Assembly: GCA_030641715.1 (NCBI GenBank)
Contig: DAOWGX010000018.1
Location: 35,752 to 99,751 of the forward strand
Reading direction: 5' to 3'
Source of the DNA: Nanobdellota archaeon
GTDB taxonomy: Archaea > Nanobdellota > Nanobdellia > Pacearchaeales > GW2011-AR1
Length of the DNA stretch: 64,000 bases
Within the stretch, counting starts at the first letter, position 1. Each line of letters begins with the position of its first letter. The notes under the pieces were generated by a model. The model did not search any database, had not been told where the DNA came from, and saw only the letters and a program-made list of their open reading frames with translations. The position numbers were made by a program, and so were the translations under genes. This document shows, in pieces, positions 3,343 to 21,811 of this stretch.

Positions 3343-3966
3343 TCTTGCAAGTTCTAATCCAATCACCGTCCCCAAATCTGGAGTGCTCCAGTCCAATCTT
3401 TCAATATTAACTGTAACTTTAGAGCCATTAGTGTCCAAGTTTTCGTAATCGATTCCCATTAAGACTAAGGAGATATTCCTTTTTTCCACTTCATTGACTT
3501 TTTGGGCATAGTTAATTAAAGACATATTTATTGGGTTCATGGCTCCGAGGTTTCTATTTCCTTCTGCGTGCAAAACAACAACTTCATTTTGACTATATAG
3601 CCAATTAATATATTCTATTGTATCGCCAGTTGTTTTTTTCGCAATTTCCAAAGAGACCCTTCTTTTTTCTTTAGGTATTTGAAGTAAATCTCTCACTCGA
3701 GTAATTCTAATCCCCCCACCTTTTTCGAACCATTTAGGCAAATTAGATTTCATAACCCAATTAGCAGGACGATTAACATATTTTTTTAAAATGTAGCCTT
3801 CCAAAAGAATATCTTTCCATGTCTGATGTTTTGGAATAATCAGTGCGGGTCCTTCAAGAGGAATATTTTTATAACCCAAAACTTCTATTTTATGTTTAGA
3901 ACAAATATAACTATCGGTAAGAGTTCTGGCAATATTATAGAAAGTCTTATTCCTCTTTAATTTCAT
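3328..3966 (-). CDS. PlsC-like lysophospholipid acyltransferase
   Basis: HX4D motif (KHQTWKD) plus EGNR block (HAEGNRN), characteristic of glycerolipid acyltransferases. Confidence 0.6.
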   Translation of the reverse strand: MKLKRNKTFYNIARTLTDSYICSKHKIEVLGYKNIPLEGPALIIPKHQTWKDILLEGYILKKYVNRPANWVMKSNLPKWFEKGGGIRITRVRDLLQIPKEKRRVSLEIAKKTTGDTIEYINWLYSQNEVVVLHAEGNRNLGAMNPINMSLINYAQKVNEVEKRNISLVLMGIDYENLDTNGSKVTVNIERLDWSTPDLGTVIGLELARLSKL

Positions 3967-14200: not shown

Positions 14201-14653
14201 CTACACAATTCGTAGTTTGGTAATTTTAAAAAAATTTTTTAAAACTTCAGACAGTTCTTTTTCTCTTTGACGACCTCTTCCAATCAAAGCCGCTTTGTTT
14301 TGACGACCTGCGTTGATTACTGCAGAATTCTCTTTTATTTCAATTTTATTAAATTCAACAGGGCTGATAACCGCTTCAACAAATTTTCCAATTTCTTCAT
14401 TAAGGTTTTTGTCGTCGTGTTCCGAGGGAGTATTCGTTGGTGGCATTGCCACAACTCTGATTTTCTTGCCCAAAATATTATTGATTTTCTTGACATTTAC
14501 AGCGCCTCTTCCGATTGCCATCGAAACTTGTTGTTTAGGTACTGCAAAAACTATCTGATTATTATAAACAAAGCATTTTGTCGTCGGAATTCTAGTCACT
14601 TTTGCAAATAGATTAATGTATCTCATTAATTGCATATCAATAGTTCCGGCCAT
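14201..14653 (-). CDS. nusA: archaeal NusA-like (two KH domains) transcription termination/antitermination factor
   Basis: size, KH GxxG motifs (GRGAVN, GRGRQ) and conserved operon position. Confidence 0.85.
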   Translation of the reverse strand: MAGTIDMQLMRYINLFAKVTRIPTTKCFVYNNQIVFAVPKQQVSMAIGRGAVNVKKINNILGKKIRVVAMPPTNTPSEHDDKNLNEEIGKFVEAVISPVEFNKIEIKENSAVINAGRQNKAALIGRGRQREKELSEVLKNFFKITKLRIV

Positions 14654-14654
14654 C

Positions 14655-14924
14655 TTATTTTTTTATATTTGCGGGAGGTTCATTTTTGGACGCAATAGAG
14701 AAAACTTCGCATTCGAAATCGAGATTTAGTTCTTTCGCTAAATTCTCTTTAGACTTCAAAACCATAAATTCAATTCCTGCGTTATCAAGAGTTTCTACAG
14801 TTTCGTCTCTAACATCTTTAGCAATAAAAACATTGGATAATTTCTTTGAATGTTTTAAAGCTTGCCGAATTCCAAAATAAATCTTTCTTTGTTCTATTGC
14901 TTCTCTAAGTTCTTTTACTGACAT
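14655..14924 (-). CDS. rpl30e: 50S ribosomal protein L30e
   Basis: 89 aa, L7Ae/L30e-fold sequence, conserved position after rpoA. Confidence 0.85.
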   Translation of the reverse strand: MSVKELREAIEQRKIYFGIRQALKHSKKLSNVFIAKDVRDETVETLDNAGIEFMVLKSKENLAKELNLDFECEVFSIASKNEPPANIKK

Positions 14925-17900
14925 TGTTTAGCTCCCTTTGATTTTTCTCTTTCCGCTAAAGAACCCGTGATTTTTACTAACAATCCTGGGAGACCAGTTC
15001 CAACAGGGACAGGTTGATTCAAAATAATGTTTTCAATTACCGATGCTAGTTTGTCCCGCTTACCTGTTTTTGTTGCCTGAACAAACTGGGGGACTGGAGT
15101 CTCAAAAGAAGCTCTTGCTAAAATAGAATTCTTATCCGAGATGATGCCCATTCGAGTAATGCCTTTAACCGCACCTGAAGCTGTCATCGTATCTGCAACG
15201 AGCATTGCATGTTTTCCATCGATTGCAAGACCCTGAGAAGTAACAACTTTTTTAATTTCGTTAATTATTGCCTGTCGTGCAGCTTCGACACCGAGAATAT
15301 TCGAAATTTCGTGGATATCGTTTGTAATAATTTTATCTTTATTAATACCTTTGAATTTCAAGATTTCCTTTAGGTTTGAACCGGCAGTTAGAACAACATA
15401 ATCCTTCTCTCGTTTAACAACTAAAACTTGCGAAATATTTTTAACACCTGTCAAAATAACTTCCTTAATCTTTTCTTTAGTTTTGTAAATTGTTTTAAAA
15501 TCCTCTTTTGTCATATCAAGTATAAATCCGTCCGAGGATTTTTTGGTACTAAAACCTTTTTCATCCAGGACTTTAATAGCATTGTCAAGACTAATATGTG
15601 CTGCTTTCAATCCTTTAGCGTCAATACCAACCTTAATTTTCTTCGAACCAAAATCAATCGTGATATTTGAAATAATTTCTTTCAATTTGACTTCCTTAAT
15701 CTTTTCAGCGATAACTTTCGCGTCTTTTTCATTGTTATGTTCTTTATCTAAATAAACTTCCATCGAAGGAGTTTTGGGTAATTTTCTTGCATCTAAAATT
15801 TCAACAAGTCTTGGGAGACTCTGAGTAACCTGCATTTCAGCTACACCCGCCGCATGGAATACGTTAAGGACCATCTGCGTCGAGGCTTCACCGAAGGACT
15901 GTGCGGTTACAACGCCAATAGCTTCACCGGATGCGATTTTTCCATTTTTATGCTTAGCCGAAATATCAATGCCATCAAGACCGTAGACATATTGGACAAT
16001 ATTATTCGAAGCATCTCTTACAGTTCCGTCGTAAGCTATAACTAAATCCTGTAATGCGTTTGCTAATCTTCTGAACAGGTAACCAGACTTAGGTGTTCTA
16101 AGTGCAACGTCCATTAGACCGTCTCGTCCAGTCATCGCACCGAAGAACAATTCGTCAGGTTCGAAACCTTTCATTAGAGAATTATAAATAAAACCATGCG
16201 ATCGAGGAGATAGGTCGCCTCTTTTGAAAAATGGCAAGGTTCTTTCAGTGTAACCGAAATCAATTCTACGTCCGTGAAGAACTTGTTGTCCAACTGAGCA
16301 GGCAATTTGGGTGATATTTAGCAAACTTCCTCCGGCTCCTGAGCTAATCATTTTGTTTGCTAAATTGGACTTAGGAAACCCTTCCTTGACTGCATCGCCA
16401 ATCTCAGTTCTCGTTTCATTCAAGGCATGCAAAATTTTAGTCTCTCTAGTTTCTTCAGCAGTTTTCCCTGGCAAACACTCGAGACTCTTATCATAATAAC
16501 TCTCGATAATCTTCTGAGTCTTAATCTCCGCAGCTTCGATAATCTTCTGAGTCTTCTTCTTCACATCTTCAGAAACATTGAGATCATCTGCAGAAAGAGT
16601 GAATCCTGTTCGTGATAAAAAATTTGCACCTAACGAAAAAACTCTCTTCAAAAGTTTGATCGTTTCAGTTCGTCCAAATTTTTTATCAGTAATTCTTAAG
16701 ACGTCTCCGCCGCCACTTTTAAATTCTCGAGGATCAATATTTTTATTTGCGATTTCTTTGGAAATAAGTTTCATAAAGATGTCTTTTCCAGAATTATTTT
16801 TATTAAGATTTCCTATTTCAATATCGTTTTCATATAATAACTGAACAGCATCTTCTTTGCTTAGTTCAGATTCACCGAGGATAAAATTACCGCTGACAGC
16901 ATCTTTGACACAACCAATAAAATTCATGTTGTTTTTTGGCGAGAATAAATTGGCGTTGACATTTAACAAAATCTTTGCTTCAGCTCGTGCTTCTTCAGTT
17001 TGAGGGGCGTGGATATTCATTTCGTCACCATCGAAGTCCGCGCCATAGGGTGCACAAACTGCTGGATGAATTCTGAACGTTTTTCCTGGGAGAACTTTTA
17101 CGAAATGAGCCATAAGTGAAGCTCGATGTAGGGATGGATGTCGGTTAAATAAGACCACGTCTCCGTCGACAAGATGTCTTTCGACAGTATAACCCGGCTC
17201 AATTTCGTTTTGTAAATCTTCTCTTAATTCCTCGGTAATTCGTTTTCTTTTCTCGTCTGGTCGAATAATATAATTAGCTCCTGGATAGTTTTTGGCTGCA
17301 ACTAATTTTTTCATACGATTAATATTTATAGAAGTTACTTTTTCAGCGACGGTTAAAACGTTAGCAACAGCTAATGGAATACCTACTTCATTTAATTTTA
17401 AATTAGGATCTGGAGAAATTACCGTTCTTGCGGAATAATTAACTCTCTTTCCTGCTAGGTTTTTTCTAATTCTTCCTTCCTTCCCTTTAATTCTTTCTGT
17501 AATTGTCTTCAATGGCTGACCGCTTCGGTGTCTTGCTGGGGGAATCTTTGCAATGGAGTTATCAAAAAATGTAGTAATGTGATACTGTAGTAAATCCCAA
17601 AGGTCTTCAATAATAACTTCTGGAGCTCCGGCGTTTAAATTTTCCCAAAGCCTTTGATTAGATCGAATGATATCTGATAATTTATGGGTCAGGTCGTCTT
17701 CAGATCTTTCGCCTGTTTGCAAGGTGATTGAAGGACGAACAGCAACGGAGGGGACAAGTAATAGTGTTAATATGGCCCATTCAGGTCTTAAGGTTGCAGC
17801 GTTAATCCCTAAAATTTTCAAATCCTCGTCGGGAACATTAACCAATCTCTCACGAATCTCTGAAGGAAATAATCTTCTTCGTCCACTTCTAAAGGTGCAG

Positions 17901-18340
17901 GGTTTCTCAAGTTTGACTTTTTCTTGAATGATTCCACAATGAGGACATTTTTTCCCGTCTTTTGCTTTTTTAATTCTATCAATTAATTCTTTGTTCAAAT
18001 CTTTCTCTTCTTTAATTAAAACTTTTCCACAAGCCTCACAAGTTGATCTCAAAACTAAATCAATGATGGGCAGATATTTAATATGGACAATTGGTCGAGC
18101 TAACTCAATTATTCCCGGATGACCTAAACATTCTTTTAATCGTCCACCACAAGTTCTACATCGAACTCCCGGATCGATAGCTCCAAGTCGCAAGTCCATC
18201 AATCCTCCGTCGACAGGATAACCATCTACATCATAAAGCTCTGGAGTTACAATTTTCGCAACAGATAATTTTTTTATTTCTTCAGGACTAAGCAGATGAA
18301 AATTCATTCCACTAACTTGTTTTTTTACTGGTCTAACCAT
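14915..18340 (-). CDS. rpoA: DNA-directed RNA polymerase subunit A, A' and A'' regions fused in one ORF
   Basis: One 1141-aa ORF holds the Zn-clamp (CRTCGG), YGADFDGDEMN active site, bridge helix (GRDGLMDVALRTPKSGYLFRRL), trigger loop (GEAIGVVTAQSFGEASTQMVLNVFHAAGV) and the A'' C-terminal block (SILARASFE..NQPVPVGTG). Confidence 0.9.
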   Translation of the reverse strand: MVRPVKKQVSGMNFHLLSPEEIKKLSVAKIVTPELYDVDGYPVDGGLMDLRLGAIDPGVRCRTCGGRLKECLGHPGIIELARPIVHIKYLPIIDLVLRSTCEACGKVLIKEEKDLNKELIDRIKKAKDGKKCPHCGIIQEKVKLEKPCTFRSGRRRLFPSEIRERLVNVPDEDLKILGINAATLRPEWAILTLLLVPSVAVRPSITLQTGERSEDDLTHKLSDIIRSNQRLWENLNAGAPEVIIEDLWDLLQYHITTFFDNSIAKIPPARHRSGQPLKTITERIKGKEGRIRKNLAGKRVNYSARTVISPDPNLKLNEVGIPLAVANVLTVAEKVTSININRMKKLVAAKNYPGANYIIRPDEKRKRITEELREDLQNEIEPGYTVERHLVDGDVVLFNRHPSLHRASLMAHFVKVLPGKTFRIHPAVCAPYGADFDGDEMNIHAPQTEEARAEAKILLNVNANLFSPKNNMNFIGCVKDAVSGNFILGESELSKEDAVQLLYENDIEIGNLNKNNSGKDIFMKLISKEIANKNIDPREFKSGGGDVLRITDKKFGRTETIKLLKRVFSLGANFLSRTGFTLSADDLNVSEDVKKKTQKIIEAAEIKTQKIIESYYDKSLECLPGKTAEETRETKILHALNETRTEIGDAVKEGFPKSNLANKMISSGAGGSLLNITQIACSVGQQVLHGRRIDFGYTERTLPFFKRGDLSPRSHGFIYNSLMKGFEPDELFFGAMTGRDGLMDVALRTPKSGYLFRRLANALQDLVIAYDGTVRDASNNIVQYVYGLDGIDISAKHKNGKIASGEAIGVVTAQSFGEASTQMVLNVFHAAGVAEMQVTQSLPRLVEILDARKLPKTPSMEVYLDKEHNNEKDAKVIAEKIKEVKLKEIISNITIDFGSKKIKVGIDAKGLKAAHISLDNAIKVLDEKGFSTKKSSDGFILDMTKEDFKTIYKTKEKIKEVILTGVKNISQVLVVKREKDYVVLTAGSNLKEILKFKGINKDKIITNDIHEISNILGVEAARQAIINEIKKVVTSQGLAIDGKHAMLVADTMTASGAVKGITRMGIISDKNSILARASFETPVPQFVQATKTGKRDKLASVIENIILNQPVPVGTGLPGLLVKITGSLAEREKSKGAKQCQ
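16503..16555 (-). repeat. in-frame 33-nt tandem duplication inside rpoA
   Basis: tcgataatcttctgagtctt at 16503-16522 and 16536-16555 (20/20); encodes KTQKIIEAAEI|KTQKIIESYYD. Confidence 0.85.
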
Positions 18341-18342
18341 AT

Positions 18343-21300
18343 TTATTCGTATTTATTTTTTAGATGGAATTTAGTTAATATGTGTAGGCCTTGTAATTCT
18401 TCGATTAGCAACTTGAAAGCGTATGAGACCTCGACGGGTTCAATTTGATTTGAGTGACATAAACTACAAATTTTCTTATTATGAATTTTATCGTCGATAA
18501 CAAGACTTCCGCACTTCGAACAAATATGAACAAGAACTTTGTCTGAATCATAACGTTCTTTTAATAAAAGAGATGCTCCATGTCCTACAAGTGCCTCTTG
18601 TTCCATTTCACCGAGTCTTAAAGCCCCTCCGCGGGATCTTCCTTCAATAGGTTGTCTTGTTAACAGGGCAATTTTACCTGAGGCTCTTGCATGTAATCTA
18701 TCTGCGACCATATATTTTAACTTCAAATAAAACATATTTCCAATAAAAATTTTGACAGGCATTCTTTGTCCATTAATTCCGTTATACATAATCTCTTTAC
18801 CATTCTCTCTGAATCCGAGTTTTTTCAAATTGTTTTCTAATGTGTCGATAGTCTCTCCTGTGAATGCCGAGGCATCGATAATTTTTCCGGAAAGGGCAGC
18901 AACTTTTCCTCCAAGGATATCCATTAAAAAACTTACAGTCATACGAGAAGGAATACCATGGGGATTGAACATGATATCAGGTCGAATACCGTTAACAGTA
19001 AATGGAATATCTGCTTCGGGAGCAACCAATCCGACGATACCTTTCTGACTATGGGGATTTGAAAATTTATCTCCAATTTCTGGGATTCTTAGTTCTCTTG
19101 TTCTAACTTGAACTATTTTGTTACCTTCTTTGTCTTGAGTGATAAAAACAGCATCGACAATCCCCGTTTCTTCTTGACGAATTGCAGAGGAGACTTCCTT
19201 CTTTGTTTGAATAGAAATTTCACGAGCCTCACTTAAAAATTTAGGAGGGCTAAGTTTTCCAATTACTATCTCGCCAGAAACCATTTTGGCTTCGGGATAA
19301 ACGATACCATCGTCCTCTAAGAATCGATAACTTTCTTCTGTTCTATAACCTGAAACATCTTTGTCTGGAATAACAATTTCATCCTTAAGACCTCCTGCGT
19401 AATTTAGTTCTACGGAAACGTATGGTCTAAATCTTGAGCTTCTAGCAAGACCTCTGTCGACGGAACCTTGATTTAAAACGGTAGCATCTTCAATGTTGTA
19501 ACTTTCATAAGGAAGGATTCCAAGGATTACGTTTTGTCCGACGGGATGAACATCCAATGTGTCGTAGATAAAGGTTCGGACTAGAGGTTTTTGAGGATAG
19601 TGTAAAAGTGAAACGTCCGTGTCAATTCTTACTGGAAAATTTCCTGCATAGATACCAAGACCCTGACGGTAAGCTCTCGAACCACCCTTGACCATACGCG
19701 CAGGAGGACTATGGTTTCCGAAAGGGATTAGTGCGACACTAACACCTAAAAGGTCTACGGGGTCAATTTCAAGATGGGTATGTTCCTCGGTCAGATCACT
19801 TTCCTTAAGTGCAATATAGCAATCATCTTCCTCAGCAGCGTCGAGATATTCTAAAATTTTCTCTTTAAATAGACCTTCCCAAGTTAGATTTCCATTTTTA
19901 ACCAATTCTAGATGTTCAGTCTTTAATTTTGCAACACCGTTTTCAACAATAATTAATGGACGAATAACTCTTCCAATTTCAGAATTTATGAAAACTGTAT
20001 CCAAAAATTTATCAAATCTTATAGATATCTCAAGGGGTAATTTGCTTTCTCGACGAGCATTTTTAACATTACTAATAAATGATTTTATCTCTCCGGTAAC
20101 TCCAATAAATCTTCCGTTGTAAAAAATATCGATATCTCCTCCATCTCCTTCTTTTGCAAATTCTTTCAGAAGATTTAAAATTTCCTTGTAATCCATCGAA
20201 GTTCTGGTTGAAATTCTTGCGAGTAAAGCTAAGTTCTTTCTTAGACCAATTTCAGTTCCTTCGGGGGTTTCAATGGGACAGAATCGACCGTAATGAGTTG
20301 GATGAACTGTTCGTGCAGCCAGATTTTCCTGTTCACTTGGAAGAGTTGAAGTTACTCTTTTTAATTGAGCCATAATTGCAAACGAGTTATTCTTGTCCAT
20401 ATTCTGGGTCACGCCGTTTCTCTCGCCAATCCACGAGCCTGTTGCAATTGCACTTTCTATCCGATGCGTGAATAAAGTTGATTTTGCAATTGTCTTAATG
20501 GAAAAAAACTTACGTCTCTTTACAGTTTTTTGTAGAGTATGCTGGACTTCCCGAAGAAGAATGTTCATGTTTACTCTAAACAAATCAGATAGCAGGTCTC
20601 CGGAAAGCCTAACTCTCTTATTTGCATAATGATCTTTATCGGTCATTGAATCTTTTGGGTTTTCCTTTGTTGCGTAAAATTGTTTAATAAATTTGCAGAG
20701 AGTTTTAGCTTTTTCAAGTCGAGTTTCCTTGCTAAGTCCAATATGTGGTAAGAAATAGGAATCTATTCTTTGTTTAACTCTATCGAGCATTTCTTTATTA
20801 GTTCCTTGCAAAGAACTTTTCTCGGCAATCCACATCAGAGCATCATTGATATTTGCAACATCTGTGAATTCATAAAAATTAACAATCAAGCCGTCTGTTT
20901 GTTTCCTAACTAATTTGGCAATCTCTGCATCGCTGGTAAGACCAAGTGCTTTCAATAAAACCATTGCTGGAATGTCTCTAAATCTAGAAAAAGAAATTTC
21001 TAAAATTCCTTCTGGACTTTCGACTAATGAGATGGGAATTTTATAGGCATCCTTTTGAGAAAATAATCTCAACATTAATCTCTTCTTGGTTTTTTGCCAT
21101 TCAATGAAAGTTTGGTTTGATGCTAAGTCTTCTGCCATAACCATAACCCTTTCATTACCATTGATTAAGAAGTAACCTCCGGTGTCTTTGGGATCAATAT
21201 AATTTTTAACTAAATCTTCTTCATTCATTTTGTTAAGATTACAAATCCCGCTTTTAATCATAACAGGAATTCTTCCAAGTTCTACGTTTTCCGTCTCAAT

Positions 21301-21606
21301 TTGTCCTGCATAATTAATGGTCATTCCCATCCAGACGGGGGCTGAATAAGTCAGTTTTCTTAATCTAGCTTCGGCAGGAGTTATTAGTTTTGAAGAACCA
21401 TCGGATTCAACTATATTTGGTTTGCCTACAGAAATTTTTCCTAATTTAATCTCGAAGTCCTCATTAGGTAATGAGTCTGAAAGTTCTGTTATAACTTCTT
21501 GCATTCGAGTTTCAATAAAGTCGTTAAAAGATCTAATATTAGATTCTACTAACGAATGATTTTTTAGAAATTCTTTAACTAAAATATGATTATCCGTTGT
21601 AACCAT
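18343..21606 (-). CDS. rpoB: DNA-directed RNA polymerase subunit B (unsplit)
   Basis: full-length Rpb2-like sequence with C-terminal Zn motif (CSKCGS..CSLCHS); start set to ATG 21606 (MVTTDNH), 1 nt after the rpoH stop. Confidence 0.95.
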   Translation of the reverse strand: MVTTDNHILVKEFLKNHSLVESNIRSFNDFIETRMQEVITELSDSLPNEDFEIKLGKISVGKPNIVESDGSSKLITPAEARLRKLTYSAPVWMGMTINYAGQIETENVELGRIPVMIKSGICNLNKMNEEDLVKNYIDPKDTGGYFLINGNERVMVMAEDLASNQTFIEWQKTKKRLMLRLFSQKDAYKIPISLVESPEGILEISFSRFRDIPAMVLLKALGLTSDAEIAKLVRKQTDGLIVNFYEFTDVANINDALMWIAEKSSLQGTNKEMLDRVKQRIDSYFLPHIGLSKETRLEKAKTLCKFIKQFYATKENPKDSMTDKDHYANKRVRLSGDLLSDLFRVNMNILLREVQHTLQKTVKRRKFFSIKTIAKSTLFTHRIESAIATGSWIGERNGVTQNMDKNNSFAIMAQLKRVTSTLPSEQENLAARTVHPTHYGRFCPIETPEGTEIGLRKNLALLARISTRTSMDYKEILNLLKEFAKEGDGGDIDIFYNGRFIGVTGEIKSFISNVKNARRESKLPLEISIRFDKFLDTVFINSEIGRVIRPLIIVENGVAKLKTEHLELVKNGNLTWEGLFKEKILEYLDAAEEDDCYIALKESDLTEEHTHLEIDPVDLLGVSVALIPFGNHSPPARMVKGGSRAYRQGLGIYAGNFPVRIDTDVSLLHYPQKPLVRTFIYDTLDVHPVGQNVILGILPYESYNIEDATVLNQGSVDRGLARSSRFRPYVSVELNYAGGLKDEIVIPDKDVSGYRTEESYRFLEDDGIVYPEAKMVSGEIVIGKLSPPKFLSEAREISIQTKKEVSSAIRQEETGIVDAVFITQDKEGNKIVQVRTRELRIPEIGDKFSNPHSQKGIVGLVAPEADIPFTVNGIRPDIMFNPHGIPSRMTVSFLMDILGGKVAALSGKIIDASAFTGETIDTLENNLKKLGFRENGKEIMYNGINGQRMPVKIFIGNMFYLKLKYMVADRLHARASGKIALLTRQPIEGRSRGGALRLGEMEQEALVGHGASLLLKERYDSDKVLVHICSKCGSLVIDDKIHNKKICSLCHSNQIEPVEVSYAFKLLIEELQGLHILTKFHLKNKYE

Positions 21607-21607
21607 T

Positions 21608-21811
21608 TTAAATGACCACCCTAAAGTATATTTCAGCGACGTCACCTTTTCGCTCGATTTTTACAATATCTCCCGTCTCGCATCCTTCTGGAAGGGCAGG
21701 ATCTTTTTTAGAAATTTTAGGTAGTTGTGCTAACGCAATATTATGCTTCGCTAAAATTTCTTCGGTTTCGTCGGAGTTCAGCTTTGTGTGCTTCGGTTGG
21801 AGGGCGTGCAT
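21608..21811 (-). CDS. rpoH: DNA-directed RNA polymerase subunit H (Rpb5 C-domain)
   Basis: 67 aa; HxLVPKH-like N-terminus (HALQPKHTKL), GDIVKIER block; sits upstream of rpoB. Confidence 0.85.
   Translation of the reverse strand: MHALQPKHTKLNSDETEEILAKHNIALAQLPKISKKDPALPEGCETGDIVKIERKGDVAEIYFRVVI

Follow-up and report, generated by a model that had tools for sequence, protein, structure and literature searches.

The largest subunit of RNA polymerase is encoded by a single fused gene, rpoA, in a stretch of 64,000 nucleotides from a Nanobdellota archaeon of the DPANN order Pacearchaeales (GenBank assembly GCA_030641715.1, contig DAOWGX010000018.1, positions 35,752 to 99,751), hereafter called the window. 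The gene results from a single derived re-fusion of rpoA' and rpoA'' at the base of Pacearchaeales, and the fused form is fixed in the order as the normal state of the lineage. We consider it highly probable (about 0.93) that the product is a functional single-gene largest subunit, and that it originated from adjacent rpoA' and rpoA'' genes by an in-frame deletion or by stop codon loss. In the textbook archaeal arrangement the subunit is the product of two genes, which encode A' (~880 aa) and A'' (~390 aa). The parts of the fused gene that are referred to below are as follows (window positions, with the evidence in brackets; ORF, open reading frame; AF2, AlphaFold2).

14915..18340, (-) strand: rpoA, fused A' and A'', one gene, 1141 aa (ORF and translation, Pfam, NCBIfam)
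17015..17047, (-) strand: catalytic Mg-binding motif YGADFDGDEMN, aa 432-442 (motif position)
16052..16141, (-) strand: bridge helix, aa 734-763 (motif position; alignment with yeast Rpb1 and T. kodakarensis A'; AF2)
15929..15973, (-) strand: seam, aa ~790-804, with a ~60-aa deletion placed at aa ~797 (5 split pairs, junction alignment, AF2)
15842..15928, (-) strand: N-terminal block of the trigger loop, GEAIGVVTAQSFGEASTQMVLNVFHAAGV, aa 805-833 (motif position; alignment)

The rpoA frame runs from an ATG to a stop codon and encodes 1141 residues with no internal stops, as found in both the ORF listing and the translation; it is the sole rpoA copy in the assembly (731 kb, 30 contigs). A Pfam scan identified Rpb1 domains 1-5, consecutively and within this one protein, with domain 5 spanning aa 725-1072. 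All A' hallmarks are present (the Zn-binding cysteines of the clamp, the NADFDGD Mg site and the bridge helix), as are the A'' elements, i.e. the trigger loop, the jaw and the C-terminal clamp-core. The clamp cysteine pairs are located at aa 61-66, 101-105 and 132-136, and the C-terminal motifs SILARASFE and NQPVPVGTG at aa 1072-1080 and 1108-1116, respectively. In a 42-sequence alignment of relatives, the clamp cysteines and the aspartate residues of the Mg motif are invariant.

The NCBIfam A' model NF006336 matched RpoA with 1015.6 bits, above its cut-off of 819, and the curated A' equivalog TIGR02390 with 984.8 bits, slightly under its cut-off of 1042.55; the latter shortfall is consistent with internal deletions at aa ~117 and ~528. 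The A'' model TIGR02389 matched residues 793-1117 with 367.5 bits, under its cut-off of 420.65, and the match starts at model position 32 of 367. RpoA does not qualify as a full-length A'' (Rpo1C), which includes an N-terminal head, and this head has been deleted. The initial annotation of the window had described one uninterrupted 1141-aa ORF with elements of both A' and A'', which is borne out by the ORF itself, the five Pfam domains and the matches to both NCBIfam models. Its placement of YGADFDGDEMN, of the trigger loop (from aa 805) and of the two C-terminal motifs is also correct, and the bridge helix, put at aa 738-760, was found at 734-763.

The bridge-helix region of RpoA aligns with residues 807-880 of yeast Rpb1 and 811-888 of T. 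kodakarensis A', and AF2 predicted helices at aa 728-744 and 750-763 in this place. The trigger-loop block aligns from residue ~53 of the A'' chains of solved archaeal polymerases, and with Rpb1 1049-1120. The spacer between the two elements amounts to only ~41 aa, close to the ~45 aa that had been proposed, and is free of the stop codon that, followed by a start, separates bridge helix and trigger loop in a canonical split pair. When raw A' ends and A'' starts were compared, both the A' tail of split relatives (...INIKQIIQDVVEG, followed by the stop codon) and their helical A'' head (MQELKKEYKDLLPEKIIQEIEDSLPEKVSKTQLKEIFKRVLEEYENS) proved to be gone from RpoA, in which ...YGLDGIDISAKHKNG leads directly into KIASGEAIGVV....

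The same conclusion was reached with the solved canonical subunits Rpo1N and Rpo1C (T. kodakarensis 4QIW, chains A and C; P. furiosus 8CRO chain A for Rpo1N and 36RO/8CRO chain C for Rpo1C; S. shibatae 2WAQ, chains A and C). They are strongly similar to the window RpoA throughout the catalytic core (E 1e-239 for A' and 1e-75 for A''), and the operon context is alike. However, they are two chains encoded by two genes, and the similarity breaks off at the boundary: the A' chains align until 18-24 residues short of their C-terminus and the A'' chains only from residue ~50-53 (RpoA 793-1125 against A'' 50-389, E ~1e-75), so that the last 18-24 residues of A' and the first ~50 of A'' are missing from RpoA. 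Thus, as the initial annotation held, RpoA has indeed lost the end of A', the beginning of A'' and the boundary between the two genes.

Yeast Pol II Rpb1 (1I3Q chain A) is contiguous like RpoA, and the bridge helix and the trigger loop can be aligned between the two proteins. Since Rpb1 aligns only on either side of residues ~881-1048, which have no counterpart in RpoA, the seam is placed at the position of the Rpb1 foot. The yeast stretch opposite the seam is one that we take to be the foot domain (domain boundaries of Cramer et al. 2001). Rpb1 carries a foot of ~170 aa and a C-terminal repeat domain, whereas in RpoA next to nothing occupies the place of the foot and the C-terminal domain is missing. 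On the basis of these alignments, the A' tail/A'' head module is the putative archaeal equivalent of the foot of Pol II Rpb1.

Five split pairs from the sister order (A' of 857-860 aa, A'' of 376-390 aa) served as the reference for lengths and gaps. RpoA is ~95-105 aa shorter than these pairs and falls ~129 aa short of the textbook total of 880+390 aa. The overall deficit of ~130 aa noted initially is real, but of the ~100-130 missing residues only ~60 were lost at the junction (at aa ~797; ~12 aa from the end of A' and ~45 aa from the start of A''). The rest disappeared through deletions of 19 aa at aa ~117, in the clamp head, and of ~19 aa at aa ~528, where the gap comprises 13 + 6 alignment columns. 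The junction alignment revealed that the ~60-aa loss at aa 797 is common to all sampled Pacearchaeales. Several residues of the seam, e.g. H797, G805, E806 and G809, are conserved in relatives. An AF2 model of the isolated RpoA subunit with 41 relatives, used solely for local confidence at the seam, gave a predicted local distance difference test score (pLDDT) of 82-85 for residues 781-800, which continue into the trigger helix (808-829).

The origin of the fused state was analyzed with an RpoA tree of 91 sequences, from which the seam columns had been removed. All 48 fused Pacearchaeales form one clade (Shimodaira-Hasegawa-like approximate likelihood ratio test, SH-aLRT, 100), the window genome lies within the Pacearchaeota clade (support 100), and the sister group of the fused clade consists of 31 split Woesearchaeota (100), with the other split DPANN outside. 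Only 4 changes between split and fused states are needed on this tree, compared with 29.6 in shuffles. In the other orders of the class RpoA is split, at the same position as in Euryarchaeota and Crenarchaeota. Taken together with the sister relationship to split Woesearchaeota, this indicates that the fused state is derived.

An unsplit RpoA of the A-type, found in Thaumarchaeota, Korarchaeota and Bathyarchaeota, is usually interpreted as an ancestral or separate state. Retention of such a primitive gene by Pacearchaeales, with later splitting in their neighbours, would fit the occurrence of unsplit RpoA in other archaeal phyla (PMC5484517), including the Bathyarchaeota sequence L080 in our own sample, as well as the presence of single-gene RpoA with a short seam in other DPANN (L078, L082, L084). 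However, the nesting of the fused clade beside split Woesearchaeota, with further split DPANN outside, argues against it, and many identical splits would be required, since every other order of the class has its split at the Euryarchaeota/Crenarchaeota position. Moreover, the A-type protein has its A' and A'' parts in one polypeptide, like the window RpoA, but L080 (1281 aa) retains a full linker module of ~75 aa between bridge helix and trigger loop, which Pacearchaeales lack, and it is placed far from the window's clade on the tree. We therefore regard retention of an ancestral gene as very unlikely.

The three short-seam genes mentioned above (L078:1004-4516, 1171 aa; L082:2985-6368, 1128 aa; L084:2974-6435, 1154 aa) come from Micrarchaeota, Altiarchaeota and Aenigmatarchaeota lineages, i.e. 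from other DPANN or from bins labelled as Altiarchaeota. They share with the window RpoA the single gene and the shortened seam, but their seam sequences are different and they occupy separate places on the tree, which points to independent fusions.

The distribution of the fused gene in the order was surveyed in 151 species genomes from 84 genera, with the 140-aa stretch from bridge helix to trigger loop as a probe. A single stop-free seam match was detected in 147 genomes (82 genera); its length was 411-429 nt, nearly always 420 or 423 nt, and wherever the contig contains the entire gene the match sits in a frame of ~1130-1220 aa. A full-length search gave a similar picture: every genome of the same genus or order contains a single frame of ~1130-1200 aa, and the other orders of the class contain A' frames of ~840-930 aa. 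When the seam probe was applied to a class sample of 401 genomes, it matched 94 from the same order, each time with one full-length seam match. It also matched ~300 genomes of other orders; all but 4 of these yielded two or more partial matches, and the matches listed for them include no full-length seam match.

Several open frames that might have been taken for additional fusions, or for interruptions, were inspected and rejected. In G221, G128, G058, G184, G170 and G059 (frames >1200 aa) A', a stop codon and A'' follow one another in the same frame; G186 (1263 aa) is split, with A'' in a different frame; and the single TGA recorded inside the G019 match belongs to the terminal stop region only. 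Within Pacearchaeales, two rpoA genes are interrupted away from the seam, by an in-frame stop near query aa 490 (L034:4440-4444) and by a frameshift near query aa 225 (L060:~3560-3569). These are probably sequence errors or pseudogenes.

The window genome is a metagenome bin (84% complete, 30 contigs), and assembly or binning might in principle have erased a stop codon or frameshift that separates A' from A'', or the contig might be chimeric. The order and class surveys effectively refute this explanation, whose probability we consider negligible: the same stop-free seam, of nearly always the same 420 or 423 nt, recurs in 147 independent species genomes that originate from many studies and assemblers, its residues are conserved, and a single base error cannot produce the loss of ~60 codons. 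Equally improbable is cleavage of one translated chain into A'-like and A''-like pieces, which would leave a split mature enzyme, since the seam comprises just a few residues with a predicted ordered structure, the termini usual for split subunits are deleted, and RpoA contains no element resembling a protease site or an intein, whereas the intein-like insert of L092 (described below) is readily visible.

How the re-fusion of rpoA might have proceeded is suggested by the split relatives, in several of which the A' stop codon is immediately followed by A'' in the same frame. A further arrangement is seen at locus L017 (G059:C28; junction at ~2718-2722, (-) strand), from another order, where A' ends soon after the bridge helix, followed by an in-frame TGA and an A'' head of merely 22 aa; this junction looks like an intermediate between the split and the short fused forms. 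Given these two arrangements, a deletion, or stop codon loss accompanied by shrinkage, would be an easy route to fusion. The ancestor would have carried adjacent rpoA' and rpoA'' genes, the usual archaeal state, and at the base of the order either a single in-frame deletion of ~180 nt or a lost stop codon with a subsequent deletion would have eliminated ~12 codons from the end of A', ~45 codons from the start of A'' and the stop and start codons in between. As a result, the strand after the bridge helix would have been joined directly to the first helix of the trigger loop. The lost piece was presumably a small helical module, which is expanded into the foot in eukaryotic Rpb1; as a surface excursion whose ends lie close together, it could have been removed with the catalytic core left intact. 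The driving force may have been the protein and genome streamlining typical of these genomes of 0.5-1 Mb.

Several points weigh against this reconstruction. A one-step deletion is indistinguishable from stop codon loss followed by shrinkage, and G059 shows that shrinkage can precede fusion. All of the genomes are metagenome bins, and it is from sequence conservation that we infer the activity of the fused enzyme and its single-chain status. The RpoA tree comes from a quick search under LG+G4, and its root is given solely by where other DPANN and Bathyarchaeota sequences fall; taken as a whole, the AF2 model of the subunit on its own is of mediocre quality (mean pLDDT 67.9, predicted template modelling score, pTM, 0.51). 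A different cause, namely that fusion compensates for a lost latch subunit (RpoK/Rpb6), was rejected, as each of the 31 relatives tested has retained PF01192, 30 of them with a score above the family cut-off.

Two other regions of RpoA attracted our attention. At aa ~596-613 (window 16503-16555, (-) strand) a 33-nt repeat encodes KTQKIIE twice. The two closest relatives, L002 and L003, have this repeat in common with the window, and the region shows no extra length compared with homologues; thus, it is not a fresh insertion in the window genome. At the position of aa ~528-545, some Pacearchaeales (L022, L055) carry a Cys-rich insert, e.g. KACKGKDCKYFEKCLKEKCPYNAY, which may form an extra metal site, Woesearchaeota have a plain loop, and the window's genus has a deletion.

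Unusual rpoA arrangements were also observed in split genomes. In one Woesearchaeota lineage (L096:2187-6324, L102:1-4005) rpoA'' is located upstream of rpoA'. The resulting order, rpoB'-A''-A', is the reverse of the universal one, and it was found in two bins that come from different studies and encode proteins with 90-94% identity. At two further loci (L092:2895-5444, L094:5558-8164) the A'' ORFs reach 850-869 aa because of a ~455-aa insert within the trigger-loop motif (GEPSTQM | ... LAEGN ... THN | TLNTFHFAGV, with bars marking the insert boundaries). The boundary residues are intein-like, making this insert a candidate intein.

The genes that surround rpoA in the window are the following.

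18343..21645, (-) strand: rpoB, B'' and B' in a single ORF, 1100 aa, 2 nt upstream of rpoA (ORF, Pfam)
20116..20163, (-) strand: rpoB seam, aa ~495-510, ...KEFAKEGDGGDIDIFYNGRF..., where B'' stops and B' starts in relatives (B'' ends and B' starts compared with fused forms)
21608..21811, (-) strand: rpoH, 67 aa, first gene of the rpoH-rpoB-rpoA operon (ORF listing; assigned from position and sequence reading)
14655-14924, (-) strand: L30e-like gene (Pfam)
14201-14653, (-) strand: KH-domain NusA-like gene (Pfam)

Genes for S12, S7, EF-2 and EF-1alpha were identified further downstream with Pfam, and the order rpoH-rpoB-rpoA-L30e-NusA-S12-S7-EF2-EF1a corresponds to the canonical archaeal operon. 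The 1100-aa RpoB contains Rpb2 domains 1-7 in one protein. In the sister order and in basal families of Pacearchaeales its gene is split into B'' and B'. The break, at query aa ~500-506, occurs in every one of the 26 split-rpoA loci whose flanks are long enough, and also in three basal Pacearchaeales (L049, L052, L056). In the order survey a single rpoB was observed in families f1 (all ~105 genomes), f2, f8 and f9 and in parts of f4 and f5, and a split rpoB in f3, f6 and f7, in much of f4 and in one f5 genome; in some f4 genomes the two halves are separated by a mere in-frame stop codon. An apparent rpoB-rpoA mega-fusion of 1973 aa (L058:1-5919) was discarded, as the run of N/X between the genes is a masking or scaffolding artefact.

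This distribution, which is a survey of states and not a rooted reconstruction, suggests that the re-joining of rpoB came after that of rpoA and took place, perhaps repeatedly, by loss of the stop codon. It is conceivable, although we advance this only tentatively, that in Pacearchaeales a catalytic core of two genes (B, A) was regained from four (B'', B', A', A''), first by a fusion of rpoA at the base of the order, in which the foot equivalent was lost completely, and then by that of rpoB. We found no paper on re-fusion of rpoB in Pacearchaeota.

The rpoA fusion of Pacearchaeota is already known. Da Cunha et al. (2017, PLoS Genet; PMC5484517) described such events as rare and named "a secondary fusion in Pacearchaeota" (text and S29 Fig), with Pacearchaea AR1 and AR19 included in their alignments. 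Their case is the same as ours, a single gene produced by secondary fusion of A' and A'', and the window genome belongs to the group concerned; their account consists of one sentence and two genomes. This sentence was the only literature that we found on rpoA fusion in DPANN, and a 2024 survey of archaeal fusions and fissions (PMC11237513) does not mention RNA polymerase. The initial annotation had conceded that its observation would be less novel if fusion were normal for the lineage, which, given fixation in the order and the 2017 publication, is the case. What the present analysis adds is modest: the fused state in 147 of 151 genomes of the order, a defined ~60-aa deletion at the seam, and the re-joining of rpoB in most of the order.

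Current understanding is thus unchanged, and the rpoA fusion should be viewed as a lineage marker, not as a discovery. In annotation, it explains why Pacearchaeales genomes score below the cut-offs of TIGR02390 and TIGR02389. Arguments on the archaeal root and on the placement of Asgard archaea have made use of RpoA, split or unsplit, as a rare genomic change (PMC5484517 vs PMC5875740), and Spang et al. (2018; PMC5875740) noted that RpoA splits and fusions are commoner than was once assumed. An order-wide secondary fusion confirms that this character is reversible, as would the proposed re-joining of rpoB in the same order. It also means that a cellular RNA polymerase can dispense with the small module at the A'/A'' boundary, the one that eukaryotes would have expanded into the Rpb1 foot. 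If the core was rebuilt in two steps, this module would be dispensable for a cellular enzyme, and the split or fused states of both large subunits would be labile and, consequently, weaker evidence for rooting the archaeal tree.

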